NCBI GenBank assembly: GCA_015232565.1
Contig: JADFZK010000004.1
Span: 11,907-75,906 of the forward strand
Reading direction: 5' to 3'
DNA length: 64,000 nucleotides
Source of the DNA: Candidatus Omnitrophota bacterium
GTDB lineage: Bacteria > Omnitrophota > Gorgyraeia > Zapsychrales > Fredricksoniimonadaceae
Within the stretch, counting starts at the first letter, position 1. Every line of letters begins with the position of its first letter. The notes beneath the pieces are model-generated. The model saw only the letters and a program-made list of their open reading frames with translations. It did not search any database and was not told where the DNA came from. This document shows positions 1,107-44,233 of the stretch, piece after piece. A program made the translations under genes and the position numbers.

Positions 1107-2561
<1,455 letters not shown>

Positions 2562-2572
2562 TTATAGGTACA

Positions 2573-3430: not shown

Positions 3431-3442
3431 AGTGCCTTAGGG

Positions 3443-4201: not shown

Positions 4202-4266
4202 ACTGAATACCCCATTTTAGTTTTTCAACAAAAGAATTCTTGACGCCACGGCGGCCCTGAATACTA

Positions 4267-4497: not shown

Positions 4498-4500
4498 GGA

Positions 4501-4722: not shown

Positions 4723-4737
4723 GGCTTTATCTCTTTG

Positions 4738-5013
4738 TTAGTTTCCGGGTGTTACGGCGGCTATCTTTTCTTCGATCATTATGTTGCACTCATTCGCAAA
4801 GAACCTGACCACCCCACCCTTGACCGGCAAACGCTTTTCCCAGTTGATAATAATTTCACCGGCCACTATCCCGATCAACGGGTAATGATAGGCCAGCAAT
4901 TCATATTCACCGCGATCCCCGGTAATAAAAACACTGCTGACCTCTTCTTCCAGGATCAAACGCTTGGCGCTCAGGATCACACAGCGAAAATTGCCTTTAT
5001 ACTTGGATGCCAT
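4738..5013 (-). CDS. atpC: ATP synthase epsilon subunit, short form (N-terminal beta-sandwich only)
   Basis: 91 aa; beta-rich sequence with GEYELLAYHYPLIGIVAGEI resembling the epsilon N-terminal domain; position within the atp cluster; lacks the usual C-terminal helical hairpin. Confidence 0.5.
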   Translation of the reverse strand: MASKYKGNFRCVILSAKRLILEEEVSSVFITGDRGEYELLAYHYPLIGIVAGEIIINWEKRLPVKGGVVRFFANECNIMIEEKIAAVTPGN

Positions 5014-5032
5014 TATGCCTGCCCTCGCCCAC

Positions 5033-10800: not shown

Positions 10801-13800
10801 ATCCGATAAAATATCCAGATCAGTCCAATTAATGCTAGTTTTAGACAACTGATCAATATCCTGCCAATTAATACCCGATGTAGATAACGAATTAATATCC
10901 GTCCAGTTAACACTGGAAATTGACATCGACGAGAAATCCGTCCAGTTCACACCAGAATTACTCAAGACATCCAGATCAGACCAGTTGACGCCCGACATGG
11001 ACATGGAGTCCAGATCGGTCCAGTTAATGCCGGCAATTGCCATCTGACTTAAATCAGTCCAGTTCATTCCAGAACGCGACATTGTAGAAAGATCCATCCA
11101 ATTCACTGCATTATTGGACATCACGCTCATATCCTGCCAATTGATCTCGGTCTTGGTCATAACGTCAAGACTGTCCCAATTAACGCCCAATTCGGTCATC
11201 ACCACAAAATCATCCCAATTAACACCGGCCGTAGTCATGATGCCCAGGCTCTCCCAATTTACCCCGGTGGTAGTCATGGTGTTCAGGTCTTGCCAATTAA
11301 TCGCACGTGTAGTAAGGACTGCCATATCATCCCAATTTACCGCGGACGAGGCCAGGACATCCAATCCGGTCCAGTTAACACCCTGGGCGCTCATAGAAGC
11401 AATATCATTCCAGTTAATACCCATGTTAGTCATGGATTGCCAATCCGACCAATTCACACCAGAATCACTCATAATATCAAGATCGGTCCAGTTAATGCCG
11501 GACGCCGACAATGACGAAATATCAGTCCAATTAATGCCAGAATTACCAAGAGTGCTGATGTCAGTCCAATTTAGCTGTGAATTTCCCAGAACCGCTAAAT
11601 CCTGCCAATTAAGCTGACTTAAACTTAGGCGCTCGATATCAGTCCAGTTAATTCCGGAAGCTGAAAGCGTTTCAATATCCGTCCAGTTTACACCCTGATC
11701 GGTCATTTTCTCAATATCCAGCCAATTGATGGAGCTATTAGTGGACACACCCAGGTCAGACCAATTTATAGCTCTAGTAGTCATTACCGCCAGGTCTTCC
11801 CAATTAATCGAATCGGTGGTCATTCTCTGCATATCCGACCAGTTTAGGCCGCTGGCTGATAAAACTGCTACATCCGCCCAATTAACGCCCAGATCGGTCA
11901 TGCGCTCAAAATCACTCCAATTTACACCGGCATTGTGTAAAACCTCTACATCCGTCCAATTGATACCACTATCGGACAAGCTTTCAATATCGGTCCAATT
12001 AATTCTACTAGTAGACAGAATATTCAGATCAGTCCAATTAATAGCACTGCCGGTTAAAGAAGCCAGATCAGTCCAATTAACTCCGGAATCACTTAAAGTG
12101 TTAACATCGGTCCAGTTGATGGCCGAACCAGTTAATTGCGCCAGGTCCGCCCAATTAATACCAGCATCATTCATGACCGAAAGATCAGACCAGTTCACTC
12201 CTGTTTTACTCAAGCTCTCTACATCTAACCAATTGACCCCTTGTAATGTTAAGGACTGAATATCCGTCCAGTTCACTCCTGTATTAAAGAACACCGCCAG
12301 ATCAGTCCAGTTGATAGCAGAATCACTCATTGAATCAATATCAGTCCAGTTAATACCCGACAAACTTTCTGCAGCCAGGTCATACCAGTTAATGCCCGAA
12401 CTGGAAATGGTTTCCAGATCAGTCCAATTGATCCCTTGCTTTGAAATCGTTTCAATGTCGGTCCAATTTACACTAGAACTACTTAACTGCGCGATATCCG
12501 TCCAGTTGATCCCGATGGTGCTTAAATAATTCAGATCAGACCAATTGACTCCGGTTTGACTTAACGTCTGAATATCGGTCCAATTAACGCCGATCTCGCT
12601 CATTGAAGAAATATCGGTCCAATTAATTCCCGAGGCACTCAATGTTTGCAAATCTGTCCAATTAATGCCAGTAGTGCTTATCTGTTCAATATCCAGCCAA
12701 TTAATACCTTTGTTACTTAAAACATTGATATCAGTCCAATTAATTGCGCTGTTAGACATTAAGCTTAGATCAGTCCAATTGATAGTTTCGGTACTGATTC
12801 TGGCCAGATCTGTCCAGTTAATAGTAGAAGTACTTAAAGTTTCAATATCGGTCCAATTAATTCCACGGTTGGACATGATATCCAGATCTGACCAGTTAAT
12901 ACCGGAATTCCCCAGTGTACTGATATCGGTCCAATTAACTCCCGATATACTCATTTGATCTAAGTCAGTCCAATTAATGCCTGACATGGTCAAGGTATTC
13001 ATATCCTGCCAGTTAATAGCAGTTGTGGTTAACACCGCCCAATCCTGCCAATTGATCGCTGACTTGCTGAACGACTCCAAATCAGTCCAATTAACACCAG
13101 ATTGAGTGATCGTTTGAATATCGGTCCAATTAACTCCCGACAAACTTAACTGATCAATATCTGTCCAATTAATGCCAGTATTTGAAAGCGATTGAATATC
13201 GGTCCAATTAACACCACTGGAACTTAAGGTGTTCATATCTGTCCAATTAATAGCGGTATCGGTCATGGCTGCTATATCGGTCCAGTTAACACCAATGTCA
13301 GACATTACTGAAATATCAGCCCAGTTGACACCGGAAGAACTTAACGTTTGAACATCGGTCCAATTAATGCCTTTATTTGAAAGAACATCAATGTCAGACC
13401 AATTAATACCTGTTTCAGTTAATGTTTGAATATCAGTCCAATTAACACCGGTCAGAGTCATTCGTTCCAGATCGGTCCAGTTAATACCGGTTTTAGTGAT
13501 CGTTTCAATATCGGTCCAATTTACGCCTTCTGTCGACAGACTTTCAATATCAGTCCAGTTAATACCGGTTTTAGATATTTGTTCTACATCGGTCCAATTA
13601 ATACCTTGATTGGTTAATGACCCAATATCCTGCCAATTGATCCCGGTAACACTAAGCTCTTTAATATCCTGCCAATTGATCCCGGATAAAGTAGCCGTAT
13701 TAACGTCAGTCCAATTTATACCGGACTGGGTTAAGGTTTGAACATCCGTCCAATTAATTCCGGTTTTACCGAGAGCTTCAACATCGATCCAGTTAATGCC

Positions 13801-16800
13801 GCTGTTACTTATTGTGGAAATATCCTGCCAATTAGTGCCCACATTACTCATTATCTCAAGATCAGCCCAGTTCACGCCGGTGCTACTTAAAGTTTGAATA
13901 TCCGTCCAGTTAATACCGGACAAGGTTAGTTTTTCAATATCGGTCCAGTTAAGACCAGATACAGTTAACGAATTCAAATCAATCCAATTAATACCAGTTT
14001 GGGATAAAGTTTCAATATCCGTCCAGTTAACACCGTTATCGGAGAGCGCTTCAATATCAGTCCAATTAATGCTCGAAGTACTCAGGGTGAGAATGTCGGT
14101 CCAGTTAATTCCGGACTTACTTATGGTATCAAGATCCGTCCAGTTAATCCCGGTTAAACTAAGTGTTTGAATATCAGCCCAGTTCACTCCGGTCCGGGAT
14201 ATTGCTTCAATATCCGTCCAGTTAATACCCTGAACCGTTAAAGTTTGCATATCAGTCCAGTTAATACTTTGGGTAGTCATGGCACTTAAATCTATCCAAT
14301 TGATCGCCTGATTAGACATGGCACTCATGTCGGTCCAATTAATGGCAGCGCCGCTCAAAATATTTAAATCTGACCAATTAATACCGGATTCACTAATTGT
14401 TTGAATATCAGTCCAATTGATCCCTGTTTCACTCAACACATCAATATCAGCCCAATTTACACCTGATTCACTAATAGTCTGGATATCCGTCCAGTTAATA
14501 CCAGTTTTTGATATCAGCTCAATATCATTCCAGTTTAATCCGTTCAAAGACAAGGCACTGATATCTGTCCAATTGATAGCGCTTCTCGAGAAAAGATCCA
14601 AATCAGTCCAATTAATTCCTGCGGTAGTAAAGGAATTAAGGTCGGTCCAATTAACTCCGGTTTTACTTAACTGCTCAATATCGGTCCAGTTAACTCCAGT
14701 AACCGACAAGGATCCAATATCGGTCCAGTTTAGACCGCTTACACTCAGCTGTTGAATATCTTCCCAATTCACACCGGTATAAGTAAGCCTTTCAATATCC
14801 TGCCAATTAATCCCCTGCTTGGTGATAACTTCCAGGTCTGACCAGTTAACAGACTGTTTGGTTAAGCTTTCAATATCCGTCCAATTCACACCTTGTTTAC
14901 TTAACAACTCAACATCGGTCCAATTTAGGCCTTGTTTGGAAAGCGTTTCGTAATCAGTCCAATTTATGCTCTGCTTACTAATAACTTCAATGTCAGTCCA
15001 ATTAATTCCGGTCTGACTAAGCGAATCTATATCCGTCCAATTAACGCCGGCCAAGGAAGCCGTTTCAATATCAGTCCAGTTAATACCTTTATTGCTAAGA
15101 ATATTAATGTCGGTCCAATTAACACCAGTCTCTGTCAGCGTTTGAATATCAGTCCAATTAACTCCGGCCAGACTCAAGGTTTCAATATCGCTCCAGTTTA
15201 TGCCTTGAGCGCTGATAGTTTCAATATCCGCCCAATTTAATCCTTCATTTGACAACGTTTCAATATCCGCCCAATTCACCGTAGAACGGCTTAATATAGA
15301 AATGTCAGCCCAGTTAATTGCTGAATCCGCCAGCGTATTTAAGTCGGTCCAATTAAGACCAGCAACGGTCATGGTTTCCAGATCGGTCCAGTTAATTCCG
15401 GTACTTGAAAGCGTAGAAAGATCGGTCCAATTAATGCCGGAAGCATGCATTGAAGCAATATCGGACCAATTAATACCAGTTACCGTCATGGATTCGAAAT
15501 CAGTCCAATTAATAGCATTGTTAGTAATGACTGACAGGTCAGCCCAATTAGTACCAACATTAGTCATAACCGACAGGTCAGTCCAATTAATACCCAGCGA
15601 ATTCATTACATTCAGATCTGACCAATTGACCCCGATCGAACTCATATAATTCAGATCCGACCAATTAACTCCAGTGGCACTCATTAAGGAAATGTCTTCC
15701 CAATTAACGCCATCTTTGGTGAGTTGTTCAATGTCAGTCCAGTTTACACCCACATTGGTCAAGGTTTGCACATCGATCCAATTAATACCTTGTTTGGACA
15801 GTGTTTCAATATCCTGCCAATTTATGTTTTGTTTGGAAATTACATCCAGGTCGCTCCAATTGATTCCGGTAGTGGCGATGGTTTGAATATCTGTCCAATT
15901 AATTCCGGTTTGCGAAATTGTTTCAATATCTGTCCAATTAACTCCTGATTTGGCCAGTACATCAATATCCTGCCAATTAATTCCGCTAGTGGTCAAGGTT
16001 TGAATATCCGCCCAATTCAGGCCAATATTGCTGGCGGTCTGCAGATCAGTCCAATTAATAGCTTGTTGCGAAATAGTTTCCAGATCGGTCCAGTTAATTC
16101 CTTCATTTGTTAAGGAGGCCCAATCCAGCCAATTGATTGTGGAGGTGCTCATCGAGGATAGATCGGTCCAATTAATACCCGATAGTCCAAGGGCGCCAAT
16201 ATCGGTCCAATTAACACCAGTCAGGCTGACAGTTTGTAGTTCGGTCCAATTGATTCCGGTAGTAGACAGCTGCGCAATATCGGTCCAATTAACACCTGTT
16301 TCACTAATGGTTTGAACATCGGTCCAATTAATTCCGGTAACTGTTAAGGCCTTAATATCATCCCAGTTTAATCCGGTAACAGTAAGGCGTTGGATATCTT
16401 CCCAATTAATGCCATTGGTAGAAAGTCTTTCAATATCCTGCCAATTAATACCTTGTTTGGATATCGTATCAATATCCGCCCAATTGACGCCGGTAGTCGT
16501 CATTGTATTAATGTCCTGCCAGTTTATAGCAATATTGCTCATCACTGCCATATCGGCCCAATTCACACCGGTAGATGATACCTGAGCAAAATCCTGCCAG
16601 TTAATAGTGGAAAGGCTCATTATAGAAAGATCATGCCAGTTCACTCCACTATCACTTAACAATTGAATATCCGCCCAATTAATGTTTTGGGTAGATAATG
16701 TTTCAATGTCAGTCCAATTTACACCCTGTTTGGTTAAAGTCTCAATGTCGGTCCAATTAATACCGGTTCTGGAAATCTGTTCAATGTCAGTCCAATTAAC

Positions 16801-19800: not shown

Positions 19801-22800
19801 GATTCCGGACATAGATAAAGTATTAAGATCGGTCCAGTTAATTGCGGACGATGATAAAGTGCTAATATCGGTCCAATTCACACCGGTAACACTTAAAGTT
19901 TCCAGGTCGATCCAATTTACACCAACCGAAGACATTTGCGAAATATCGCTCCAATTAATTCCGGAAGTAGTAAGAGTATCAAGATCGGTCCAGTTAATTG
20001 CCGAATTTGTTAAAACTGACATATCTGCCCAATTCACAGAAGATTCCGACATCAGGTCAATATCTGCCCAATTCACACCTAAAGTTGTTAAGACCCCAAT
20101 GTCACTCCAATTAATCCCTGTAGCCGACAAAGATTGAATATCGGTCCAATTAATCCCAGTCACACTTAATGTTTCAATATCCTGCCAATTAATAGCAGTG
20201 GTAGAAAGTGACTGGATATCAGTCCAATTTAAACCGGTCAAGCTTAATGCTGAAATATCGGTCCAGTTTACCCCTGCACTGGTTAGGACATTAATGTCAG
20301 TCCAGTTGACCCCCGACTTGGTCAAAAGATCAATGTCGGTCCAATTAACTCCGGTGGTCGAAATTTGTTCAACATCGGACCAATTAATACCTGATCTGCT
20401 TAAAGTCTCAATATCGCTCCAATTAATAGCCGACCGAGCCAAAACATCAATATCCGACCAATTCATGCCGGTCGTTGAAAGTACGCCGATATCAGCCCAA
20501 TTAATGTTGGTCAAACTTAAAGAACCAATATCCGACCAGTTTACTCCAGTCATCGTTAAGGAAGCCACATCCGTCCAGTTAATTGCGGAATCACTTAATG
20601 AATTAAGATCATCCCAATTAACACCGGTAACACTTAAAATTTCAAAGTCAGCCCAGTTAATTCCGACATTAGTTAGTGATTGAATATCAGTCCAATTAAT
20701 TCCGGAATCAGTTAACCCGGCGACATCCGTCCAGTTAATGCTGGATTTGGTTAATAATTCTATATCCGCCCAATTCATGCCCGACTTGGCCAGAATATCA
20801 ATATCCTGCCAATTTATACCCGTAGTACTCAAAACTCCCACATCAGTCCAATTAATTCCAGTTTCACTTAACCGGCCAATGTCAGTCCAGTTAATGCCAG
20901 TCAAAGTTACTTCACTTATATCAGACCAATTAACACCAGTCAGGCTCATCGCGCCAATATCTGTCCAATTAATACCTTTATTTGTTAAATCATTAACATC
21001 CGACCAATTAATGCCACTCTCAGTTAAAGTGCCAATATCTGTCCAATTTACACCATCGACGCTCATCTGCGCAAAGTCCGTCCAGTTTACGCCACTGGTC
21101 GTCATTAAACTAAAATTATCCCAATTAAGAGTGGACGTTGACAACAACTCTAAATCAGCCCAATTAACAGCTGAAGAACTTAAAGTTTCAATATCGATCC
21201 AATTAACGCCCGAATGCGTTAAGGATTCGATATCGGTCCAATTAATTCCGGTCTTGGTGATGGTATCAATATCCTGCCAGTTAATACCGGTACTGCCCAG
21301 TACGCCGATATCCGACCAGTTAATGCCAGTCCGGGTTAAGACTTCCACATCCGCCCAGTTTAAGGAAGAACGGCTGAACACGTCGATGTCAGACCAGTTC
21401 ACACCCGTTTTCGACAAGGTCTCAATATCCGTCCAGTTGATACCCGTCATGGTGAGGGTTTCAATATCGGTCCAGTTGACGCCGGACGTGGTGAGCGTAT
21501 TGATGTCGGTCCAATTGATACCGGTCCTGGTGAGCAATTCGATATCGGTCCAATTAATACCGGTATTTGTTACCTGGCCGACATCGGTCCAGTTGATCTC
21601 ACTGCGGCTGATAACATCAATATCCGCCCAGTTGATCCCGGTCTTAGCCAGCGTGTCAATATCCTGCCAGTTAATTCCGGTAATAGACAGAACGCCGATA
21701 TCCGTCCAGTTTACACCGGTTTCACTTAAGCGGCCGATATCCGTCCAGTTAATTCCGGTTAAGCTGACCGCTTCAATATCAGTCCAGTTTACGCCTGTCA
21801 GACTCATTGCCCCGATATCGGTCCAATTAATACCTTTGTTGGTAAGGTCGTTAATATCCGACCAATTGATCCCGCTGGCCGTCAAAGAACCAATATCGGT
21901 CCAGTTAACGCCATCAACGGTCATCTGCGCGAAATCCGTCCAGTTAACTCCGCTGGTCGTCATTAAACTGAAATTGTCCCAGTTAATAGTGGAAGTCGAC
22001 AATACATCCAGATCCGACCAATTAACCGCCGACGCACTCAATGTTGCGATATCGGTCCAGTTAACGCCCACATCGGTCAAGATCCCCATATCCTGCCAGT
22101 TCACACCTGAGTTGGTCATCACCGAAAGATCGTTCCAGTTGACACCTAACCCGTTCATGACATTCAGGTCTGACCAATTTACACCAATATTGCTCATGTA
22201 ATTCAGATCCGACCAGTTGACTCCCGCCTGGCTCATGGCATCAATATCAGTCCAGTTCACACCGGTCTTAGTAAGTTGGTCAATATCAGTCCAGTTAATT
22301 CCCGTATTCGTCAAAGCGCCAATGTCGGTCCAATTAATTCCAGTCTTGGTGATGGTATCAATATCCTGCCAGTTAATACCGGTACTGCCCAGTACGCCGA
22401 TATCCGACCAGTTAATGCCAGTCCGGGTTAAGACTTCCACATCCGCCCAGTTTAAGGAAGAACGGCTGAACACGTCGATGTCAGACCAGTTCACACCCGT
22501 TTTCGACAAGGTCTCAATATCCGTCCAGTTGATACCCGTCATGGTGAGGGTTTCAATATCGGTCCAGTTGACGCCGGACGTGGTGAGCGTATTGATGTCG
22601 GTCCAATTGATACCGGTCTTGGTGATCAATTCGATATCGGACCAATTGATGCTGGTATTGCTTACTGTGCCCAAATCAGTCCAGTTAATACCAGTTTCAC
22701 TTAACCGCCCAATGTCGGTCCAGTTGATTCCAGTTACACTTAAAGATTCAAAATCAGTCCAATTGATCCCGGTCAAACTAGCTGATCCAATATCCGCCCA

Positions 22801-25800
22801 ATTAATACCAGTGGTGCTAATTTGACCCAGATCCTGCCAATTAATTCCAGTCTTCGAAATGATTTCAACATCAGACCAATTAACACCCGTCTTAGTTAAG
22901 GTATCAATGTCCTGCCAGTTAATTCCAGTAGTAGTTATGGTATTTAGGTCGGACCAGTTCACACCAGTTTTGGTAAGAAGATCAATATCGGTCCAATTAA
23001 TACCAGTTATTGCAAGCTGTTCCACATCGGTCCAATTAATACCAGAGCGGCTGATAACGTCGATATCATTCCAATTAACTCCTGTCTTAGCCAAAACATC
23101 AATATCCTGCCAATTAATTCCGGTGTTGCTTAGCACTCCAATATCCGACCAATTCACTCCAGTCGCACTGATCGAGCCAATATCAAGCCAATTAATTCCG
23201 GTAACACTTAAAAAACCAATATCCGTCCAGTTGATACCCGTCATGCTTAAAGCTTCAACATCGGTCCAATTGATGCCTTTATTTGTTAATACATCAATAT
23301 CCAACCAATTGATCCCATTATCACTCAAAACCGCAACGTCCATCCAGTTCACACCATTAATGGTCATCTGCGCAAAGTCGGTCCAATTAACGCCCACCGC
23401 GGTCATCACGCTGAAGCTATCCCAATTAACTCCGGCAGTCGTTAAACTATTTACATCCGACCAATTAACCGCAGTTAAACTTAAGGCCGCAACATCGGTC
23501 CAATTAACCCCAATAGTAGTTAAAGTGTTTACATCTTGCCAATTAACGCCTGAAGTGGTCATAACCGACAGGTCATTCCAATTTACACCAATGCTGTTCA
23601 TTATATTAAGATCAGACCAGTTCACACCAATATTACTCATGTAATTCAGATCAGACCAGTTCACTCCAGACTGACTCATTGACTCAATATCCGTCCAATT
23701 AACACCCGTCTTGGCAAGCAGGTCAATATCGGTCCAATTAATCCCAGTATTACTTAAAGTGCCGATATCGGTCCAATTAACGCCAGTTTCGCTTAACCGC
23801 CCAATATCGGTCCAGTTTATACCAGTAACGCTTAATGTTTCGAGATCAGTCCAATTGATCCCGGTCAAGCTGGCTGACCCGATATCTGTCCAATTAATGC
23901 CGGTGGTACTAATTTGGCCAAGATCCTGCCAATTAATTCCAGTCTTTGAAATAATTTCAACATCAGACCAATTGACACCTGTTTTAGTTAGGGTATCAAT
24001 ATCCTGCCAGTTAATTCCATTGGTGGTTACTACATTAAGGTCAGACCAGTTAACGCCGGTTTTGGTAAGAAGATCAATATCGGTCCAATTAATACCAGTG
24101 GCGGAAATTTGTTCTACATCGGTCCAGTTAATACCTGAACGGCTGATAACTTCAATATCATTCCAATTGACACCAGTTTTAGCTAGAACATCAATATCCT
24201 GCCAATTAATTCCGGTGTTGCTTAGCACACCAATATCCGACCAATTCACTCCAGTCGCACTGATCGAACCAATATCAAGCCAATTAATTCCGGTAACACT
24301 TAAAGAACCAATATCCGTCCAATTGATACCCGTCATGCTTAAAGCTTCAACATCGGTCCAATTAATGCCTTTATTTGTTAATACATCAATATCCAACCAG
24401 TTGATCCCGTTATCACTTAAAACTGCAACGTCCATCCAGTTCACACCATTAATGGTCATCTGCGCAAAGTCGGTCCAATTAACGCCCACCGCGGTCATCA
24501 CGCTGAAGCTATCCCAATTAACTCCGGCAGTCGTTAAACTATTTACATCCGACCAATTAACCGCAGTTAAACTTAAGGCCGCAACATCGGTCCAATTAAC
24601 CCCAATAGTAGTTAAAGTGTTTACATCTTGCCAATTAACGCCTGAAGTGGTCATAACCGACAGGTCATTCCAATTTACACCAATGCTGTTCATTATATTA
24701 AGATCAGACCAGTTCACACCGATATTACTCATGTAATTAAGATCCGACCAGTTCACCCCCGCCTGGCTCATAACATCAATATCTGCCCAATTAACACCAG
24801 TCTTGGTAAGCAAGTCAATATCGGTCCAGTTAATCCCTGTATTGCTTAGAGTGCCGATATCGGTCCAATTAACGCCGGTCTCGCTTAACCGCCCGATATC
24901 GGTCCAGTTGATTCCAGTTACACTTAATGTTTCAAAATCAGTCCAATTGATCCCGGTCAAACTAGCTGATCCGATATCTGTCCAATTAATGCCGGTGGTA
25001 CTAACCAGGCCGAGATCCTGCCAATTAATACCAGTTTTAGAAATGCTTTCAACATCCGACCAATTGACACCCGTTTTAGTTAAAGTGTCAATATCCTGCC
25101 AGTTAATTCCGGTGGTGGTTATTAGATTGAGATCGGACCAATTAACACCCGTCTTGGTAAGAAGATCTATGTCTGTCCAGTTAATGCCAGTTATCGAAAG
25201 CTGTTCCACATCGGTCCAATTAATACCTGAGCGGCTGATAACATCAATGTCGTTCCAGTTGACACCAGTTTTGGCCAGAACATCAATATCCTGCCAATTA
25301 ATACCTGTTTTACTTATCACATCTATATCCGTCCAGTTAACACCTAATGAGCTTATAACACTTACGTCCAGCCAATTAACGCCTGCGAGTGTCAACTCAC
25401 CTACGTCAGTCCAATTTACATTTGCGCTGGTCATTGAGCCAAAACTTTCCCAATTAACACCAGCATTGGTCATGGAATCTAAATTACTCCAATTTACACC
25501 AGAATTAGTGAAGTTTTGTAATTCGGACCAATTAACACCAGCCTCGGTCATCGACGTAATATCATCCCAATTAATTCCTGAAATAGTAAGTGTTTGTAAA
25601 TCATTCCAATTTAATCCGGCAGCTGTTAAAGCGGTGATATCCGTCCAATTAATATTACTATCGGTTATGGTTTCAACATCAGTCCAATTAACACCAATAT
25701 TACTTAAAGTCGTAATATCTTGCCAGTTAACGCCAGCATTGGTCATGACCGATAAATCATTCCAATTGACGCCCAAACTATTCATTACATTAAGATCGGA

Positions 25801-28800
25801 CCAGTTCACGCCAATGTTACTCATGTAATTAAGATCCGACCAGTTCACCCCCGCCTGGCTCATGACATCAATATCTGCCCAATTAACACCAGTCTTGGTA
25901 AGCAAGTCAATATCGGTCCAGTTAATCCCTGTATTGCTTAGAGTGCCGATATCGGTCCAATTAACGCCGGTCTCGCTTAACCGCCCGATATCGGTCCAGT
26001 TGATTCCAGTTACACTTAATGTTTCAAAATCAGTCCAATTGATCCCGGTCAAACTAGCTGATCCGATATCTGTCCAATTAATGCCGGTGGTACTAACCAG
26101 GCCGAGATCCTGCCAATTAATACCAGTTTTAGAAATGCTTTCAACATCCGACCAATTGACACCCGTTTTAGTTAAAGTGTCAATATCCTGCCAATTAATT
26201 CCGATGGTGGTGATTGTATTGAGGTCAGACCAATTAACGCCCGTTTTGGTAAGAAGCTCTATGTCAGTCCAGTTAATACCAGTCGATGCTAAATGTTCCA
26301 CATCGGTCCAATTAATACCTGAACGGCTGATAACATCAATGTCGTTCCAGTTGACACCAGTTTTAGCCAGAACATCGATGTCCTGCCAGTTAATACCAAC
26401 GTTACTTAATACTCCGAGGTCCGACCAATTAACACCTGTTTCACTAATAACATCAATATCCAGCCAGTTAATGCCGGTAACGCTTAAAGCACCAATATCC
26501 GTCCAATTAATACCTGTCAGGCTTAAAGCTTCAACATCAGTCCAGTTAATACCCTTATTTGTTAATACATCAATATCCAACCAGTTGATTCCGTTATCAC
26601 TTAAAACCGCCACATCCATCCAGTTCACACCATTAATGGTCATCTGCGCAAAATCCGTCCAATTAACGCCAACCGCAGTCATCACGCTGAAGCTGTCCCA
26701 ATTAACTCCGGCAGTCGTTAAACTGTTTACATCCGTCCAATTAACTGCGGTCAAACTTAAGACCGCCACATCGGTCCAATTAACACCAATAGTAGTCAAG
26801 GTGTTTACATCCTGCCAATTAACGCCTGAAGTGGTCATAACCGACAGGTCATTCCAATTTACTCCAATACTGTTCATCACATTCAGGTCGGCCCAGTTAA
26901 CACCGATATTGCTCATGTAATTCAGATCCGACCAGTTGACTCCTGACTGACTCATTGACTCAATATCCGTCCAATTAACACCAGTCTTAGTAAGCAGGTC
27001 GATATCGGTCCAATTGATCCCGGTATTGCTTAAGGTGCCGATATCGGTCCAATTAACACCGGTTTCACTTAACCGGCCAATGTCGGTCCAGTTTACCCCG
27101 GTTACACTTAGAGCCTCAATATCAGTCCAATTTAAACCAGTCAAACTTAATGACCCGATATCAGTCCAATTTATTCCAGTAGCACTTAAACGGCCAATAT
27201 CTTGCCAATTTATTCCTGTTGTGGAAAGTCTTTCAATATCAGACCAATTAACACCAACCTTAGTTAAAGTGTCAATGTCTTGCCAGTTAATACCAGTTAT
27301 GCTAACGGTTTCAATGTCTGTCCAGTTCACTCCGGTCGTAGATAAAGTTTCAATATCTGTCCAATTTATTCCTGTGTTACTCAATGTGGATAGATCAGTC
27401 CAATTTATTCCAGTGTTAGTAATTGAATCAATATCTGACCAGTTAACACCTGAATCACTTAACAAAGCAATATCATTCCAATTTACGCCATCGGCGGTCA
27501 GTTGCGCAAAATCAGTCCAGTTAACGCCAACCGCAGTCATTACACTAAAGTTATCCCAATTCACTCCTGCTGAAGCCATTAAATCGAGATCAGACCAATT
27601 TACTGTAGTTTCGCTTAAAACCGCCACATCATTCCAGTTAACTCCGGCTAAACTGAGCGAGCTCACATCATGCCAATTGACACCGGCAGTTGTCATAACC
27701 GAAAGATCATTCCAGTTAACACCTAAGCTGTTCATAACATTGAGATCTGACCAATTTACCCCAATATTACTCATATAATTAAGATCGGACCAATTTACCC
27801 CGGAACGACTCATCAAATCAATATCATTCCAGTTAACATTGGTTTTACTTAGAGTATCAATGTCTTGCCAATTGACCCCAGTAGTAGAAAGTGTTTCAAT
27901 ATCAGTCCAATTAATTCCGGTTTTAAATAAAACGTCAATGTCTTGCCAGTTAATACCGGATTTAGCTAAAACATCGACATCCGCCCAATTAACACCAGTT
28001 GCAGATAAAACACCGATATCCGTCCAATTAATTCCTGTGCGGCTAAATGTGTTTATATCTTCCCAATTTAATCCGGTCATGCTAAGCGCGGAAACGTCCA
28101 TCCAATTAATACCTTGCGTGCTTATTTGCGAAATATCAGACCAATTCACATTTGCAGTGGACATGGTAGTAATATCATCCCAATTCGCACCTGCTATTGA
28201 TAACGTTGCAATATCAGTCCAGTTAATACCAGAAACAGACATTGCATCAAAATTTGTCCAATTAATACCTGAAACTGTCATTGTTTCAATATTGGACCAA
28301 TTAATACCACTTTGAGTCAAAGAGCCTATATCCGTCCAATTAACGCCAGTTTCACTCAAAGAACCAATATCAGACCAGTTAATAGCGGTACGCGACAAGG
28401 TCTCGATATCCGTCCAATTGATTCCCATATCCGACATGGTTTGAATATCATCCCAGTTTACACCTTTAGCACTCAGGACTTGAATATCAGTCCAGTTAAT
28501 GCCTACCAGGGACATCAAAGCAACATCAAACCAATTTACACCGGTAGAACTTAATGTTTGAATATCATCCCAATTAATATTTGTTTTGGTCAAACTTTGA
28601 ATGTCATTCCAGTTAACTCCGGCTTGAGTAAGCGTTGAAATATCCGACCAATTTACCCCGTTAACCGACATGGTTCCAATATCTATCCAATTAATACCAG
28701 CAACTGAAATTGTTTCAATATCAGACCAATTAACTCCAGACAAGCTTATTTGTTCAATATCTTGCCAATTAACCCCTTGATTGGACAGCACATCAATGTC

Positions 28801-31800
28801 TAACCAGTTAACTCCTTGTGTAGTTAAAACACCAATATCAATCCAATTGATCCCAGTAGTGGAAATAGTTTCAATATCTAACCAATTAATACCTTTCTTT
28901 GAAATAACTTCAAAATCAGCCCAATTAATACCAGTATTACTAAACACCGTCACATCGGACCAGTTTACACCTTCTTTGGAAAGCATTTCAATATCAGCCC
29001 AATTAACTCCGGATTGACTGAAAGTTCCCAGATCGATCCAATTAATACCGGTTAAACTCATGGCTCCAACATCGATCCAATTAATGCCCACAGTGGTCAT
29101 TTCACTTAAGTTATTCCAATTCAATCCCGCAGTTGAAATAACATTCAAATCGCTCCAATTAACTCCGGTTGAAGCCAGCAAACTAATATCAGTCCAATTA
29201 ACACCTGAAGTGGTTAATACTGAAATATCATTCCAGTTAACCCCAGCGTCAGTTAATATTGAAAGATCGTTCCAATTAACTCCGGCCGTACTCAAGGTTT
29301 CAATATCAACCCAATTAATTGAGCTGTTCCCCAACACACCAAAGTCGCTCCAATTGATCCCCGTCAAACTTAACGAAGCAATATCAGTCCAATTTACTCC
29401 ATTACCGCTAAGCGCACCGATATCAATCCAGTTAATGCCATTATTTGACATCGACTCTATACTCAGCCAATTAATACCAGAAGTAGACATTGCGCCAATG
29501 TCCTGCCAATTCAACGTGGTCTTGGAAAGAACATCAACATCAGACCAATTAATACCGGTAGCTGAAAGTGCCGCAATATCTTGCCAGTTAATAGAGGAGT
29601 TCGACAAAATCGACAGATCACCCCAATTAATCGCAGAATCAGACAATGCCTGAATATCCACCCAGTTGATGGCCTGAGTTGAAAGACTTTCTATGTCGGT
29701 CCAATTAACGCCTGACAAAGTAAGACTTTCAATATTGGTCCAATTAACACCATTATTGGACATTAGTGAAAGATCATTCCAATTAACACCTATTGTACTC
29801 ATTACCGAAATATCAGACCAGTTAACACCATTTTTAGAAAGCTGATCCAGATCCGACCAGTTAATGCCGGTAAGACTCAAATTTTCAATATCCGTCCAAT
29901 TAATCCCATTGGTAGATAAAGTTTGAAGGTCGATCCAGTTAATCCCTGCGTCGGTCAAAACGGCAATATCCTGCCAATTCACACCGGCTTTACTGCTGGA
30001 ATCAAGATCCGTCCAATTAATTCCTGATTGGGTTAATGCCGTTATATCCTGCCAGTTCACACTAAGAGCGGTCATTGAAGCCAAATCTTGCCAATTAACG
30101 CTACTCCGGGAAAGCGTTTCAATATCCAACCAATTAATTCCAACAGAGGTCAATGTGTCCAGATCACTCCAGTTAATACCCTGGGCTGTCAAACTACCAA
30201 GATCAACCCAATTGATGCTATTAAGGCTCATAACAGAAAGATCGTTCCAATTAACCATTGAAATACTTAATGCATTTACATCGGTCCAATTAACACCGGA
30301 CTTAGTCAAAGTCTCAATATCTATCCAATTGATCCCCGCATTTGAAAAAGAATTAATATCGGCCCAATTAACTCCTGATCTGGTCAATGTGTCCAGATCT
30401 TGCCAATTAATGCCCGCTTCGGTAAGAACATTAAGATCCGACCAGTTGACTCCAGTTAAAGACAGGGCCGCCAGATCAGTCCAATTAATTCCCGCCGCAG
30501 TGACAGCGTCAACATCCGTCCAATTTATACCCACTGCCGATAATGTTCCCAGATCCAGCCAATTAATTCCGGTTTGACTTAATACGCCTAAATCCTGCCA
30601 ATTAACTCCCGTCGCAGTGATCGTTTGTAGATCAATCCAGTTAATACCTGCACTCGCTAAAGAAGAAACATCTTGCCAATTAACTCCGGCATCCGATAAA
30701 GTTGCCAAGTCACTCCAATTAACACCGTTCAAAGAAAGTGCGGCAATATCCGTCCAATTAACTCCTGATAATGAAAGCGAATTAAGATCACTCCAATTAA
30801 CGGCGGAATCAGACAGACTTTGAATATCGGTCCAGTTAACTCCGCTAACACTTAGATTGCCAATATCGGTCCAGTTAACACCAGACAAACTAAGAGCGCC
30901 AATGTCAGTCCAGTTAACACCCGTATTGCCAAGTATCCCGATATCAAGCCAATTAATACCGGTTTTTGATAAAGTTTCAACATCACTCCAATTAACTCCT
31001 GCCTCGGTTAAAGACTGAACATCCGTCCAATTAACACCCACAGTACTGATAGTTTCAACATCAACCCAGTTAACACCGGATAACGACAATGTTTCCAGGT
31101 CAACCCAGTTAACACCCATAACAGTCATTGACTGAAGATCAGTCCAATTGACCCCGGTCATGGTCATGGACTGCAGGTCCTGCCAGTTAATCCCGGTAGA
31201 GGTAAATGATTGTACGTCGGCCCAGTTGACACCAGTACGACTTAACGTTTCAATATCAGTCCAATTAACGCCTATCCTGGTCATCGTTTCAATATCCGAC
31301 CAGTTTACTCCCTGTAAAGTCAACGACTGAACATCGATCCAATTGATACCCGCTACAGTAAGGCTTTCAATATCGGTCCAATTAATACCAGACTGGCTAA
31401 CCTCTCCAATATTCTCCCAATTGACACCCACATTGGTCATGGTCGAAAGGTCATTCCAGTTAATTCCCAGGCTGTTCATGATATTTAGATCAGACCAGTT
31501 CACTCCTACATTACTCATGTAGTTGAGATCCGACCAGTTGACTCCGGTCCGGCTCATTTGATCAATATCCTGCCAGTTAATACCGGAAAGAGTCAAATTC
31601 TCAACATCAAGCCAGTTAACACCAGCCAGGGTCATGGCGCCAATATCAACCCAGTTAACACCGGTTTTAGTAACCGCTTCAATATCCAGCCAGTTTACGT
31701 TAGCGGTCGTCAAAGCATTAACATCCGTCCAGTTAACCCCGGCGGCCGTTAAGGCACTAATATCAGTCCAATTTATAGTCGCTAAAGACATTACATTCAA

Positions 31801-34800
31801 ATCACTCCAGTTAACGCTGGAAGAGGTCAAGGTCTGCAGGTCGGTCCAGTTCACTCCGCTATCAGCCAGTGAACCAAGATCGATCCAGTTAACGCCAGAC
31901 TGACTTAATGAACCCACATCAAGCCAATTAACACCGGATAGAGTTAAAGCTTGAACATCATTCCAATTAAGCCCGGCGGCCGAAAGCGCTGACACATCGG
32001 TCCAGTTAATTCCCGCGTTGGTGAAAATGTTTATATCGCTCCAATTAACACCTGCCGTGGTCAACGTAGTAACATTATCCCAATTGACACCCGCCAAAGA
32101 CAAGGTGTTAAGGTCGCTCCAATTGATACCCGACTCACTTAATAGAGAAACATCCGTCCAATTTACACCGGCAACGGTAAATGTTTCAATATCCGTCCAA
32201 TTAATTCCGGAAGAAGTTATGGTTTGCAGATCAGTCCAGTTAATACCGGTCTGACTTAAAGCGCCGATATCTTCCCAGTTCACTCCGGTAGCGCTTAACT
32301 TGCCAATATCAGTCCAATTAATTCCGGTTGCTGAAAGCGCGCCCAGATCAACCCAGTTAATTCCAGCCGCAGAAAGAGTATTAATATCACTCCAGTTGAT
32401 ACCGGTCTGGGAGAACGCCGCAAGATCAGTCCAGTTTACGCCCGCTAAAGTGACCGCATTCAGATCACTCCAGTTTACTCCCGCATAACTTAAAGCCTGA
32501 ATATCGGTCCAATTAACTCCGCTGTCAGACATGGCACCCAGATCAATCCAGTTAACGCCGGATTGACTTAACGATCCGATGTCTTCCCAATTAACCCCGG
32601 TAGCGCTCAAAGCGCCAATATCAGTCCAGTTAATGCCAATGCGAGTTAATGAATCAATATCACTCCAATTAATGCCTTGTGTTGAAATAGCTTGTATGTC
32701 AGTCCAATTAATACCTGAAACACTTAATGAACTAATGTCAGTCCAATTAACGCCCACATCCGACAAAGCACCAATATCAGTCCAATTAACTCCTGCCAGA
32801 CTTAAACTGCCGATATCAGTCCAATTAACACCTGTCACTGTGAGCGATTGAACATCCTGCCAGTTTATCCCTGAAAAAGATAAAGCTTGAATATCAAACC
32901 AATTAACGCCAGTACCACTTAAAGTCTCAACATCCAACCAATTAATCCCGGATTCAGTCAATGATTCGATATCAGTCCAATTAACTCCCTGCATAGTTAA
33001 AGACTGAACATCAGTCCAATTAATCCCGGATAAAGTTAGTGTCTCAACATCGATCCAGTTAATACCAGATTGACTTACTGTGCCAATATTTTCCCAATTA
33101 ACACCCACATTGGTCATGGTCGAAAGATCATTCCAATTAATGCCCAGGCTATTCATAATGTTGAGGTCCGACCAATTTACGCCAACATTACTCATATAAT
33201 TCAAATCAGACCAATTAACCCCGGTTCGGCTCATTTGATCAATGTCGAGCCAATTAATACCAGTCAAAGATAAATTTTCAACATCAGTCCAGTTAACTCC
33301 GGAAAGACTTAAAGCCTCGATATCAACCCAATTAACACCAGCATTACCCAGCACAGCGATATCCTGCCAATTGACTCCAGTTTTGCTTAAGGTATCAATA
33401 TCACTCCAGTTAACACCAGCAACGGTTAACATTTGAATGTCAGTCCAGTTTACGCCGGTCTCACTTATAACCCCGACATCAGTCCAATTAACTCCGGTCG
33501 CAGCTAAAGTGCTAATGTCAGTCCAATTAACTCCGGATAAACTTAAACTTCCCAGATCACTCCAGTTAACACCAGCGTTAGTTAACGAGCCGAAATCGAT
33601 CCAATTAACCCCCGCTTTTGATAAAGTATCAACATCCATCCAATTCACACCAGCAACTGACAGAGCCGTAACATTATCCCAATTAACCCCAGCTACACTC
33701 ATAGTTTCCACATCAACCCAGTTCACACCGGATACCGATAATGTTTCCAGGTCAACCCAGTTAACACCCATAACAGTCATCGACTGAAGATCAGTCCAAT
33801 TGACCCCGGTCATGGTCATGGACTGCAGGTCCTGCCAGTTAATCCCGGTAGAGGTAAATGATTGTACGTCGGCCCAGTTGACACCAGTACGACTTAACGT
33901 TTCAATATCAGTCCAATTAACGCCTATCCTGGTCATCGTTTCAATATCCGACCAGTTTACTCCCTGTAAAGTCAACGACTGAACATCGATCCAATTGATA
34001 CCCGCTACAGTAAGGCTTTCAATATCGGTCCAATTAATACCAGACTGGCTAACCTCTCCAATATTCTCCCAATTGACACCCACATTGGTCATGGTCGAAA
34101 GGTCATTCCAGTTAATTCCCAGGCTGTTCATGATATTTAGATCAGACCAGTTCACTCCTACATTACTCATGTAGTTGAGATCCGACCAGTTGACTCCGGT
34201 CCGGCTCATTTGATCAATATCCTGCCAGTTAATACCGGAAAGAGTCAAATTCTCAACATCAAGCCAGTTAACACCAGCCAGGGTCATGGCGCCAATATCA
34301 ACCCAGTTAACACCGGTTTTAGTAACCGCTTCAATATCCAGCCAGTTTACGTTAGCGGTCGTCAAAGCATTAACATCCGTCCAGTTAACCCCGGCGGCCG
34401 TTAAGGCACTAATATCAGTCCAATTTATAGTCGCTAAAGACATTACATTCAAATCACTCCAGTTAACGCTGGAAGAGGTCAAGGTCTGCAGGTCGGTCCA
34501 GTTCACTCCGCTATCAGCCAGTGAACCAAGATCGATCCAGTTAACGCCAGACTGACTTAATGAACCCACATCAAGCCAATTAACACCGGATAGAGTTAAA
34601 GCTTGAACATCATTCCAATTAAGCCCGGCGGCCGAAAGCGCTGACACATCGGTCCAGTTAATTCCCGCGTTGGTGAAAATGTTTATATCGCTCCAATTAA
34701 CACCTGCCGTGGTCAACGTAGTAACATTATCCCAATTGACACCCGCCAAAGACAAGGTGTTAAGGTCGCTCCAATTGATACCCGACTCACTTAATAGAGA

Positions 34801-37800
34801 AACATCCGTCCAATTTACACCGGCAACGGTAAATGTTTCAATATCCGTCCAATTAATTCCGGAAGAAGTTATGGTTTGCAGATCAGTCCAGTTAATACCG
34901 GTCTGACTTAAAGCGCCGATATCTTCCCAGTTCACTCCGGTAGCGCTTAACTTGCCAATATCAGTCCAATTAATTCCGGTTGCTGAAAGCGCGCCCAGAT
35001 CAACCCAGTTAATTCCAGCCGCAGAAAGAGTATTAATATCACTCCAGTTGATACCGGTCTGGGAGAACGCCGCAAGATCAGTCCAGTTTACGCCCGCTAA
35101 AGTGACCGCATTCAGATCACTCCAGTTTACTCCCGCATAACTTAAAGCCTGAATATCGGTCCAATTAACTCCGCTGTCAGACATGGCACCCAGATCAATC
35201 CAGTTAACGCCGGATTGACTTAACGAACCGATGTCTTCCCAATTAACACCGGTCGCGCTCAAGGCGCCAATATCAGTCCAGTTAATACCAGCATCCGTAA
35301 GAGCTGTAAGATCCTGCCAATTCACACCAACATTCGATAACCGCGAGAAATCTTCCCAATTAATTGCCGAATTACTTAAGGTCTGGATATCCGCCCAGTT
35401 TAACCCGGAAACACTGAACGTTGCGACATCGGTCCAATTTACTCCAGCCATTGATAAAGACTGAATATCTACCCAATTAACGCCGATAACAGTCATGTCC
35501 CCGATATCGGTCCAGTTTATCCCGTTCATGGACAAGCGCTCCAGATCGGTCCAATTAACTCCGGTACTACTAAGTAACTCTACATCGTTCCAGTTAATTC
35601 CAGCGTTAGTCAAAGCATTAATATCTGCCCAATTTATCCCTTGAGTTGAAATGCCCAGAATATCATCCCAATTAATGTTAGTAGTAGACAATACCGCTAA
35701 GTCACTCCAATTTACCCCGTTAACCGATAAGGTTTCTATGTCCGTCCAGTTAATATTACTTACGCTCAGAGATTCAATATCTGTCCAATTAACGCCAGTT
35801 TCACTCAATCTGCCAACGTCAGCCCAATTAATACCTTCGGTTGAAAGGCGATTTATATCCACCCAGTTAACGCCGGTTACAGATAAAGCGGCAACGTCGG
35901 TCCAATTTATACCTTGAGCAGACATAGAGCCAAGATCGATCCAGTTCACACCAACAGCCGAAAGAGACGCCAAGTCATTCCAGTTTACTCCCATTGAGGA
36001 TAAAGCCGAGAGGTCCTGCCAATTAACCGACGCCAATGACAATACATTGAGATCCGTCCAATTAATGTTGGATTCAGACAAAGCCGCAATATCGGTCCAG
36101 TTGATATTAGCGGAAGCAAAAGTGTTTATGTCTGTCCAATTGATCCCCGACACTGAAAGTAATTCAATATTAGTCCAATTAACACCGCTATCCGATATGG
36201 TCTGAATGTCGAGCCAATTAACACCCTGATTGGTAAGAGTACCAAGATCAAGCCAGTTAATACCTGTTTCACTAATAACATCCAGGTCATTCCAGTTTAC
36301 ACCAGCCGCAGTCAAAGAAGCAACATCCGTCCAGTTCACACCACTGGCAGACATTACATTTATATCGCTCCAATTAATTCCGGTCTTGGACAAAGTGGTT
36401 ACATCTTCCCAATTGATACCGGCAATAGTAAGTGCCCCAATATCAGTCCAGTTTATAGCTGAAGAACTTAGCGTTTCAATTTCTGTCCAATTGACACCCG
36501 CTACCGATAAATCACCCAGATCTGTCCAGTTAATTCCAGCCGCAGTCATCGTCTGCATATTGGACCAATTTACGCCAGTAGCCGACAAAGATGCTAAATC
36601 AAGCCAATTGATATTGGAATTTGTAAAAACATCAATATCCGACCAGTTTACACCAGTCGCAGTCAAGACGGAAACATCGGTCCAATTAATGCCCGCTTGG
36701 GACATTTGATCAATATCCTGCCAGTTTACTCCGGTAGCAGATAAAGCCGCTATATCAGTCCAATTAATTCCACTAATACTGACATTCTCCACATCCGTCC
36801 AATTTATACCCGACATTGACAAACGATCAATATCCGTCCAATTGACACCAGACAATGAAAGAGCCTGGAGATCGATCCAATTTATTCCCGTTGCCGCGAT
36901 GGTCCCAACTTCATCCCAATTAACTCCAGCCTGCGAAAGCACTACAACATCATTCCAATTGATGCCTTTTAGAGATAAAGCGCCAATATCATCCCAATTA
37001 ACACCCGCCATGGTTAAAGCAGAAATATCAGTCCAATTTACCCCCGAATCCGAAACCAGCCCGACATCGATCCAGTTAATACCGGAAGTCGAAAGTGCAT
37101 TGACATCCGACCAATTTATGCCACTGTCGGCCATGACAGTGATATTTCCCCAGTTAATGCCACTGCGCGACAAAATATCAACATCGGACCAGTTAATGCC
37201 ATTGGTCGACAAAGACACGATATCGTTCCAATTTATCCCCGTTCGGCTTAGCAGGTCGATATCTCCCCAGTTAATGCCCGCAACAGAAATCGCTTCAATA
37301 TCGGTCCAGTTAACACTGGCATCACTCATGGCGCCAATATCCAGCCAATTAATACCGTTAGCCGAAAGAACGCCGATATCGCTCCAGTTAACACCGCTGG
37401 CCGACAAAGTTTCAACATCAGTCCAATTCACTCCGGTCAACGATAGCACTCCAAGGCTTTCCCAATTGATCCCGCTGGCAGTAAGAGTGTTTATATCGGT
37501 CCAGTTTATGCCTTCCGAAGTAACCCGGCCAATATCCGTCCAATTAATACCGGTTGAACTGATCACCCCAATATCGATCCAGTTAACGCCTTCCTGCGAA
37601 AGCGAAACAATATCGGTCCAATTAATACCGGCAACTGATAAAGAACCCAAATCAGTCCAGTTTACATTAGAGTAGCTCAAACTATTGATGTCGCCCCAAT
37701 TGATATTACTAGCCGCCATTAGGGAAATATCGCTCCAATTAACACCCGCTTCTGATAAAGACCCAATATCAAGCCAATTAATACCCTGAAGACTCATGGT

Positions 37801-42512: not shown

Positions 42513-42544
42513 AGGCTCTTTTGTAGGAAGTTTTAAGTGTTGAT

Positions 42545-44143: not shown

Positions 44144-44233
44144 AAAACCTCATGCAATTTTTTACACCCAAGCAACGCGCTAGATCCCCTTCGAAAACTA
44201 CTACTGCGGGCGAACGATAGCGAAAGAGTTTCT

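Follow-up and report, generated by a model that had tools for sequence, protein, structure and literature searches.

A 64,000-nucleotide stretch of a contig from Candidatus Omnitrophota bacterium (JADFZK010000004.1, positions 11,907 to 75,906; hereafter the window) encodes on its minus strand a giant protein built largely of tandem 13-residue (39-nt) units, and part of this array is organized into a higher-order repeat of 28 units, or 364 residues (1092 nt). This 364-residue period is real but local and, with good probability, not a structural period of the whole protein. It most probably records the duplication history of one lineage, namely a lineage-specific local amplification on which conversion patches were later superimposed. 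An initial annotation, made from the sequence alone, had described the higher-order organization and had interpreted it either as a structural super-repeat, such as a turn or domain boundary every 28 rungs, or as concerted evolution by unequal crossing-over; its observations were borne out, its interpretations only in part.

The giant open reading frame (ORF) stays open for 32.9 kb without interruption and contains the entire region flagged in that annotation. Its units follow the consensus [TS]-D-[ILV]-x-x-[LM]-[ST]-x-x-G-[IV]-N-W, in which N and W are invariant, D reaches 93% and G 83%; among 798 NW dipeptides, 792 lie exactly 13 residues apart. The register runs from aa 502 to aa 10,674 without a break, and space for further domains is therefore absent from this interval.

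The flagged region, here termed zone B, comprises blocks c0 to c5, each delimited by a landmark, a cassette of three units, at its start (Table 1). In the translated minus-strand ORF, the autocorrelation of this region amounts to 0.728 at a lag of 364 residues, 0.674 at 728 and 0.655 at 1092, against a background over all multiples of 13 with a mean of 0.495 and a standard deviation of 0.037. Lag 364 is thus enriched beyond what the 13-residue periodicity implies, with a similarity clearly above that of other multiples of 13. Even over the whole protein it ranks first (0.492 versus 0.446 ± 0.008). At the DNA level, megablast detected 84-92% nucleotide identity within zone B at offsets of 1092, 2184 and 3276 nt (background, 55.5%), all block offsets being exact multiples of 39 nt. 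A unit map revealed a common 28-unit order in c1, c3, c4 and half of c2, as expected of a higher-order tandem repeat. Inside the blocks c1-c3 (23656-26931), a nested similarity of ~5 units was observed in units 15-21 of each block, where QDIDxLxKTGVNW followed by xDxxxISxSGINW is seen twice; it hints at an older, smaller duplication within the 28-unit block.

Outside this region the period fades. A sliding profile of lag-364 identity is high only between ~21 and 27.5 kb, and the 208 of 782 units that possess a paralogue at 87% nucleotide identity or more all fall in two zones, A and B, leaving 574 units without a close paralogue. With both duplication zones masked, the 28-unit lag lies at background (z = 1.39). 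A super-repeat along most of the array, of the kind known from nebulin and titin, was accordingly not found. Periods of two, three or six units are likewise absent from the window protein (lags at multiples of six, 0.478 versus 0.480), and correlations for an alternation of I and V are at most 0.085 in size.

Zone A is a second and younger duplication, in which two copies of a block of ~38-45 units lie 68 units (2652 nt) apart. They are 95.8% identical over 1818 nt by megablast and perfect over ~1.45 kb, with differences confined to the block edges. The landmarks at 34.1 and 31.5 kb, which belong to these copies, are identical, and that at 33.2 kb lies between them. This duplication accounts for an autocorrelation peak at lag 884. 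Zone A did not figure in the initial annotation.

Six long plus-strand ORFs across zone B had been noted for boundaries spaced exactly 1092 nt apart, with variants of 1443 and 858 nt that are also multiples of 39. Their ends (22201, 23644, 24736, 25828, 26920 and 27778) confirm this, the spacings of 1443, 1092, 1092, 1092 and 858 nt corresponding to 37, 28, 28, 28 and 22 units. Each antisense stop is a TAA created by the antisense of sense AAT-TAC or AAT-TAT, the Asn-Tyr codons of the landmark, and the ORFs are therefore shadows of the sense repeat. The probability that they are real genes, such as a tandem antisense gene family, is negligible: although they share one frame and encode 254-487 aa, they are fully contained in the minus-strand ORF, their stops arise from the sense landmark codons just described, and it is the minus-strand product that has homologues, conserved synteny and, in its frame, a ratio of nonsynonymous to synonymous divergence (dN/dS) of 0.05-0.08.

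Divergence, selection and conversion among the blocks

Blocks c1, c3 and c4 share 90-93% identity in protein and 84-90% in DNA, with a synonymous divergence (dS) of 0.45-1.0 at the dN/dS of 0.05-0.08 given above. Synonymous codon differences between them reach 37-73% of the expectation for random codons drawn from the gene's own usage, a value that stands at 96% for random in-register pairs. Even at five 'variable' unit positions dN/dS is 0.12-0.15. The combination of high dS with low dN/dS, variable positions included, demonstrates that the blocks are not recent neutral copies, and the unit-specific residues of the blocks are under purifying selection, at the 'variable' positions as well.

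Patches of 7-9 units that are identical or 99% identical between neighboring blocks represent recent gene conversion. Units 20-27 of c1 and c2 and units 2-8 of c3 and c4 display no differences at all. The segment 21233-21545, previously described as near-identical to 22325-22637, indeed matches it at 310 of 313 positions (99.0%), while its flanks are at background, per-unit identity falling to 17-26 of 39 nt on both sides. Change-free runs of ~300 nt are not expected by chance at 10-16% divergence and are therefore regarded as conversion tracts; in zone B they connect units at the 28-unit lag in every case. Block c2 is a mosaic. Its units 15-16, 18 and 20-28 match c1 in protein, with the zero nucleotide differences over units 20-27 already mentioned, and its units 4-14 have only background similarity to the other blocks, yet comprise exactly 11 units, so that the 1092-nt spacing is kept.

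Concerted evolution by unequal crossing-over, as proposed initially, thus fits the data in one respect, as the offsets in multiples of 39 nt and the conversion patches agree with it, and fails in another, as the likeness of the blocks derives mainly from purifying selection. Homogenization is not its chief cause; selection on the protein holds the copies together. A hierarchy of repeats in a protein is commonly attributed to structure or else to recent DNA homogenization, two causes that the codon data separate here. Old blocks with heavy synonymous divergence and a nearly identical protein sequence imply that the units of the array are not interchangeable. Taken together with the selection-held six-unit period of other lineages and a small cassette that moves in place, both described below, this makes the family a useful natural system for the evolution of very long repeat proteins.

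It is very improbable that the 28-unit period is an artefact of assembly and that the number and order of the blocks are not real. Public homologues are almost all fragments at contig ends, which shows that this family breaks assemblies, and the perfect repeat of zone A extends over ~1.45 kb. The four zone B blocks, however, differ by 92-201 codons each, mostly synonymously and in frame, and are therefore distinct sequences rather than one sequence counted repeatedly. Moreover, the giant ORF is unbroken throughout, and identical patches in zone B do not exceed ~350 nt.

The geometry of the blocks suggests unequal recombination as their origin. The 39-nt units are sufficiently alike for recombination out of register but in frame, and one or a few such events may have copied a landmark-headed 28-unit block, giving the four to five blocks in tandem at ~21.1-27.8 kb. 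Later and independently, ~40 units would have been duplicated at the 68-unit lag at 30.8-35.4 kb. The subsequent steps are evident from the data: the blocks gained many synonymous and few replacement changes under purifying selection, short tracts were re-homogenized through gene conversion between neighboring blocks at the 28-unit lag, and in one block 11 inner units were exchanged with no effect on its length. Some points weigh against this history. The duplication mechanism is deduced from geometry; the 1.45-kb perfect repeat of zone A could be a product of assembly; and the low dN/dS could also fit a 28-unit block that serves as a functional module, which would give the period a functional meaning.

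Table 1. Positions of the repeat features and neighboring genes in the window
Feature	Position (nt)	Strand	Remarks
Giant ORF, 10,962 aa	7855-40743	-	signal peptide, two Ig/FN3-like domains, 13-aa array, C-terminal tail
Array of 13-aa (39-nt) units, ~790 copies	8563-39777	-	NW spacing, per-position frequencies
Zone B, flagged higher-order repeat	21121-27789	-	megablast offsets, unit map, codon differences, dN/dS
Block c0	26932-27789	-	22 units; older and diverged
Block c1	25840-26931	-	28 units
Block c2	24748-25839	-	28 units; mosaic
Block c3	23656-24747	-	28 units
Block c4	22213-23655	-	37 units
Block c5	21121-22212	-	diverged
Eight-unit patch	21233-21545	-	partner 22325-22637, offset 1092 nt
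Zone A, second and younger duplication	30826-35415	-	two copies: 30826-32638, 33478-35290
Landmark cassette, three units	25723-25839	-	SDLNYMSNIGVNW-SDLNVMNSLGVNW-NDLSVMTxxGVNW
Landmark copies	34069-34185, 33094-33210, 31417-31533, 27673-27789, 26815-26931	-
Landmark copies	24631-24747, 23539-23655, 22096-22212, 15544-15660	-
Degenerate landmark	29740-29856	-	12 mismatches
Run of long antisense ORFs	20738-27778	+	shadows of the sense repeat, not genes
Antisense ORFs	20738-22201, 22859-23644, 23711-24736, 24803-25828, 25862-26920, 27014-27778	+
443-aa protein	6517-7848	-	directly downstream of the giant gene
F-type-ATPase-like operon	1107-6520	-	alpha, epsilon, c, 76-aa two-helix protein, b/delta fusion, gamma, beta
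Upstream genes	40872-47289	-	two FGE-sulfatase-like-domain proteins, TPR protein, secretin, weak GspC-like protein

The landmark cassette and super-periods in relatives

With at most four mismatches allowed to a 33-residue string, the window protein contains the ten landmarks listed in the initial annotation (34.1, 33.2, 31.5, 27.8, 26.9, 25.8, 24.7, 23.6, 22.2 and 15.6 kb), together with the degenerate one at 29.8 kb. Their spacings are 25, 43, 43, 53, 22, 28, 28, 28, 37 and 167 units. Compared with the 751 other units, the 30 landmark units always carry Leu at position 3 (30/30 versus 168/751) and Met at position 6 (30/30 versus 142/751), and are enriched in an aromatic residue at position 5 (10/30 versus 6/751), Asn at position 7 (10/30 versus 1/751) and Ile or Leu at position 9 (17/30 versus 26/751). 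These residues sum to an extra hydrophobic stripe across two to three units. Landmark copies without recent homogenization differ in their 39 codons by 12-22 synonymous versus 0-8 replacement changes; for example, the copies at 34.1 and 33.2 kb show 18 synonymous and no replacement differences, and those at 27.8 and 25.8 kb show 22 and one. As these changes are mostly synonymous, the peptide is held by selection. A lone single-unit variant of the landmark, SDLNYLSTIGINW, is present at 12528-12540 (aa 9402), distant from any full landmark.

A word-indexed protein search yielded 40 matches, all fragments, and an exhaustive one yielded 284 clusters at E values up to 0.001 (longest member 4701 aa; longest strong match 2809 aa); the matches are fragments, mostly labelled 'hypothetical' and from metagenome-assembled genomes (MAGs) of Omnitrophica/Omnitrophota. 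Seeding a metagenome scan with the landmark yielded 65 loci, and the loci analyzed (L001-L068, at least 30 units each) provide ~8,700 in-register units. On L003 (JGI 3300020219, contig Ga0163146_10000109, 10001-21749), a 582-aa N-terminal piece of a family member directly precedes a 16,204-aa ORF; the two probably constitute one gene of ~16,800 aa split by a frameshift or sequencing error.

The closest relative is L001, a Candidatus Omnitrophica MAG contig in which the giant gene is truncated. Over the C-terminal third it is positionally orthologous to the window protein, with identities of 0.60-0.74 along one diagonal for more than 100 units (background 0.42-0.48) and cumulative indels of just 3, 9 and 12 units, a run that reflects a general constraint on the units. 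L001 has three landmarks, 31 and 34 units apart; at the places of the second and third (~1599-1727 and 2925-3053), the window protein has three ordinary units (~14335-14451 and 13009-13125) with the register unshifted, and the flanks are orthologous, 8-11 of 13 residues being identical. Between species, landmarks and ordinary units have thus replaced one another at fixed positions, as cassette conversion would predict. The third landmark of L001 and the units after it match block c5 over ~7 units, one of them at 13 of 13 residues, and the remainder of the 28-unit block is not shared with L001. The landmark is accordingly a conserved cassette of three units, extended to ~7 in some copies. Conservation of the super-period in orthologues was not detected, the L001 fragment stopping short of the position orthologous to zone B. 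Elsewhere, the landmark occurs twice in L032 and once each in L005 and L008, and a variant form occurs once on Ga0163146_10000109 (the overlapping loci L003 and L023) and once on Ga0163152_10000503 (L020 and L027). Many family members of 300-500 units lack it, and it was found in closer relatives only.

Some relatives carry a super-period of another kind. A six-unit (78-aa) period extends over hundreds of units in L023, L017, L015, L041, L050, L016 and L038, and a two-unit period was found in L034 and L058. Protein identity in L023 amounts to 0.75 when the lag is a multiple of six units, compared with 0.49 at other lags. Synonymous saturation in L023, L015 and L041 is 0.86-0.94 at six-unit lags and 0.88-0.96 at other lags; as synonymous sites are near saturation at six-unit lags, this period is maintained at the protein level. 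It may well be a genuine structural super-repeat.

These relatives bear on the proposal that the 28-unit block is itself a structural or functional super-repeat whose landmark must recur at a fixed spacing to provide a joint, a turn or a docking site. Such a reading would explain why the blocks are conserved in protein despite heavy synonymous divergence and why the replaced stretch of c2 kept exactly 11 units, preserving the spacing; the selection-held six-unit period demonstrates that the family can carry structural super-periods along a whole protein, and the confidence of the structural model described below peaks over the landmark. It is nevertheless improbable. Landmarks of the window protein lie anywhere from 22 to 167 units apart and those of L001 31 and 34 units, the 28-unit signal is absent outside the duplicated zone, landmarks are missing from most family members and are gained or lost in place between species, and the model has no break at the landmark. 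The suggested super-repeat every 28 rungs is therefore disfavored by the masked lag and the irregular spacings (22-53 and 167 units), and a turn or domain boundary at the landmark by the uninterrupted helix-loop pattern of a low-confidence model and by the many long members that lack it. The landmark is gained and lost in place of three ordinary units without a shift of register, and may serve as an extra hydrophobic docking patch.

Protein architecture and predicted fold of the unit

The only hydrophobic segment of the giant protein is its signal peptide (aa 12-43). The protein is strongly acidic, with a net charge of -1068 (1300 Asp and Glu versus 232 Lys and Arg); T, S, N, I, V and G are abundant, A, E, K and R scarce, and just 2 Cys and 22 Pro are present. 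About 300 residues of its N-terminal region were modelled as two Ig/FN3-like beta-sandwiches (mean predicted local distance difference test score (pLDDT) 67.7), for which PDB matches include complement MG domains, cytokine-receptor FN3 pairs, intimin and SiiE. The C-terminal tail of ~235 aa is coiled-coil-like and conserved among homologues.

The 13-residue-repeat family is unannotated. Pfam and NCBIfam profile searches of the repeat, N-terminal and C-terminal segments returned sub-threshold noise only. No profile match reached the curated cut-off for membership of the RTX beta-roll, pentapeptide or lysostaphin 13-residue repeat families: in the Pfam scan, Lysostaphin_N scored 27.5 and 20.9 bits (cut-off 60) and Pentapeptide_4 scored 19.5 (cut-off 38), and the giant protein segments had no RTX match. 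A PDB profile search with the repeat found no match, and a literature search for 13-residue repeats in giant or Omnitrophota proteins found nothing relevant. A PDB sequence search with the repeat gave weak matches to leucine-rich repeat proteins (best E = 0.0016). Membership of that class was rejected, as it requires units of 20-30 residues with LxxLxLxxN, the present unit has 13, and no leucine-rich repeat match was obtained in Pfam.

AlphaFold2 was run on a 364-aa stretch with an alignment of in-register paralogous windows. The resulting model has 28 helices of 8-10 residues joined by linkers of 3-5 residues, with a mean pLDDT of 60.5 and a predicted TM-score (pTM) of 0.33; pLDDT is highest over the landmark (70-74), where this low-confidence model retains an unchanged helix-loop pattern without a break. 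A Foldseek search with the repeat model found no structural neighbor (TM-score at most 0.19). MAFFT had slid the overlapping 364-aa windows onto their true overlaps (820 columns), and the uneven depth of that alignment may lower the confidence. The predicted model is too uncertain for geometry.

The helix limits of the model match two motifs of the unit, I/V-N-W-T-D-I and L-S-x-T-G-I/V. The first supplies the residues of a capping box and a hydrophobic staple (N', I/V; N-cap, N; N1, W; N3, D; N4, I), the second those of a Schellman-type C-cap (C3, L; C', G; C'', I/V). Each 13-mer of the array (8563-39777) can be read as one complete short helix, with a single I/V common to both capping motifs. 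Because motifs for capping both the N- and the C-terminus of a helix are present, each unit is most likely one ~10-residue helix followed by a G-I/V-N linker. The rungs of the initial annotation presume a beta-solenoid, for which the sequence pattern and the model would substitute one short helix per unit. Arguing against the helical assignment are the poor modelling of the fold and its lack of neighbors (the mean pLDDT and TM-score given above), the amino-acid composition given above, which is commoner among beta-rich surface proteins, the invariance of N at the supposed cap, where S, T or D would do equally, and the weak sequence matches to leucine-rich repeat proteins. A beta-solenoid with one 13-residue coil per unit is unlikely, as four large hydrophobic residues in 13 would be too bulky for such a coil; a two-unit (26-residue) coil is a possible alternative.

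Gene neighborhood and comparison with known systems

The 443-aa protein encoded directly downstream of the giant gene combines a lipoprotein-like signal (IIAGC) with a central coiled coil and a membrane helix at the C-terminus. Its position is occupied in both relatives examined, by a 76%-identical homologue in L001 and by an unannotated 387-aa gene in L002. The adjoining ATPase-like operon, in which epsilon consists of the N-terminal domain only and no a subunit was found (1107-6520), lies after the giant gene in L001 and L002 as well. L002 shows the C-terminus of the giant gene, the 387-aa protein, the ATPase operon, and PilB-like, PilC-like and pilin genes in this order, and L003 shows secretin, TPR, a small ORF, the 582-aa N-terminal piece and the 16,204-aa ORF. 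The recurrent order in the loci examined is thus secretin, TPR, (FGE-sulfatase-like), giant gene, a ~400-aa membrane protein or lipoprotein, an F1-like ATPase without a, PilB, PilC and pilin.

In the accessible part of its text, a study by Seymour et al. (2023, PMC10066038) describes F-type ATPases of a non-respiratory, 'symbiotic' type-2/3-like kind that share loci with type IVa pilus genes across Omnitrophota, and the window and L001-L003 correspondingly show the ATPase operon beside secretin, PilB, PilC and pilin genes. Giant ORFs of the phylum are reported there separately from this co-location, and the same part of PMC10066038 contains no description of a giant gene with 13-residue repeats between the ATPase and pilus genes. 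Secretion loci upstream of Omnitrophota giant genes are noted in the available portion of another report (West-Roberts et al., bioRxiv 10.1101/2023.11.21.568195); neither that portion nor the one available for a catalogue of long proteins (bioRxiv 10.64898/2026.06.07.730766) mentions a 13-residue repeat.

The Archaeovorin and Dockerin-type giants covered by these two preprints come from the same phylum, likewise adjoin type II/type IV secretion-like genes and are thought to act at the cell surface. They are described there as having many transmembrane regions, with SecA-like and HEAT/TPR domains, or dockerin and TSP3 repeats (bioRxiv 10.1101/2023.11.21.568195, 10.64898/2026.06.07.730766). Membership of either group was rejected for the window protein, which has the signal peptide as its sole hydrophobic segment, no Pfam domain and one 13-residue unit. 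The giant gene itself seems to be a constant member of the ATPase and pilus locus reported from Omnitrophota. Judging from synteny, its product may be an exported surface fibre linked to the secretin/ATPase machinery; in that case the entire protein would form a strongly acidic fibre of great length that leaves the cell through the neighboring secretin system.

Nebulin consists of 35-residue helical modules arranged in seven-module super-repeats that match the period of the actin filament. The window protein resembles it in its great length, in the repetition of one short, predicted helical module hundreds of times, and in the higher-order repeat on top. It differs in that the super-repeat of nebulin covers most of the protein, whereas the 28-unit period occupies four to five blocks only, so that the six-unit super-repeat of the relatives offers the closer parallel. 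The two proteins have no sequence relationship, and the window protein is bacterial, secreted and strongly acidic.

The ice-nucleation protein InaZ possesses periods of 8, 16 and 48 residues in a uniform hierarchy tied to a beta-solenoid. Both it and the window protein are bacterial surface proteins in which a long array kept in register shows nested periods; the window unit, however, has 13 residues and is probably helical, its higher order is local, and no Pfam ice-nucleation match was found in the window protein. Higher-order repeats of satellite DNA likewise arise through tandem amplification of several units and bear conversion patches at the block period. The present array differs in being coding, in keeping a register in multiples of 39 nt, and in owing its likeness mainly to purifying selection.

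The gliding machinery of Mycoplasma mobile reportedly pairs an F1-like ATPase with giant proteins of the cell surface, namely Gli349, Gli521 and Gli123. The likeness resides in an F1-like ATPase that does not serve ATP synthesis and is encoded together with very large surface proteins. The giants nevertheless lack sequence similarity, and the host of the window protein has a diderm envelope with a secretin. The link between gliding and the ATPase is also cited in the accessible part of PMC10066038.

A more speculative proposal, for which the odds are low, holds that the NW unit represents an undescribed fold class and that ~790 capped helices form a micrometre-scale acidic fibre, passed through the secretin and working with the F1-like ATPase and type IV pilus genes. 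If this were true, the fibre might act as a ruler or sheath along a filament, or as a leg or tether for surface movement or attachment to prey. The six-unit period of the relatives would then match the geometry of a partner, and landmark cassettes would serve as docking sites that can be moved, with duplication and conversion adjusting how many there are and how far apart they lie. Given the place of its gene between a secretin and an F1-like ATPase operon in the loci examined, with type IV pilus genes downstream in a relative, the giant protein is a candidate component of attachment or motility in a phylum of ultra-small, probably host-dependent bacteria.

Further genes of the window include a glycine-cleavage cluster with a split P protein (51.8-56.2 kb) and a 1088-aa protein (56166-59432) with a weak match to the GH149 beta-1,3-glucan phosphorylase family (123 bits versus a cut-off of 1150). 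A PilZ-domain protein (61849-62343) and an AsmA/DUF748-like protein (62379-63875) are encoded near its end.

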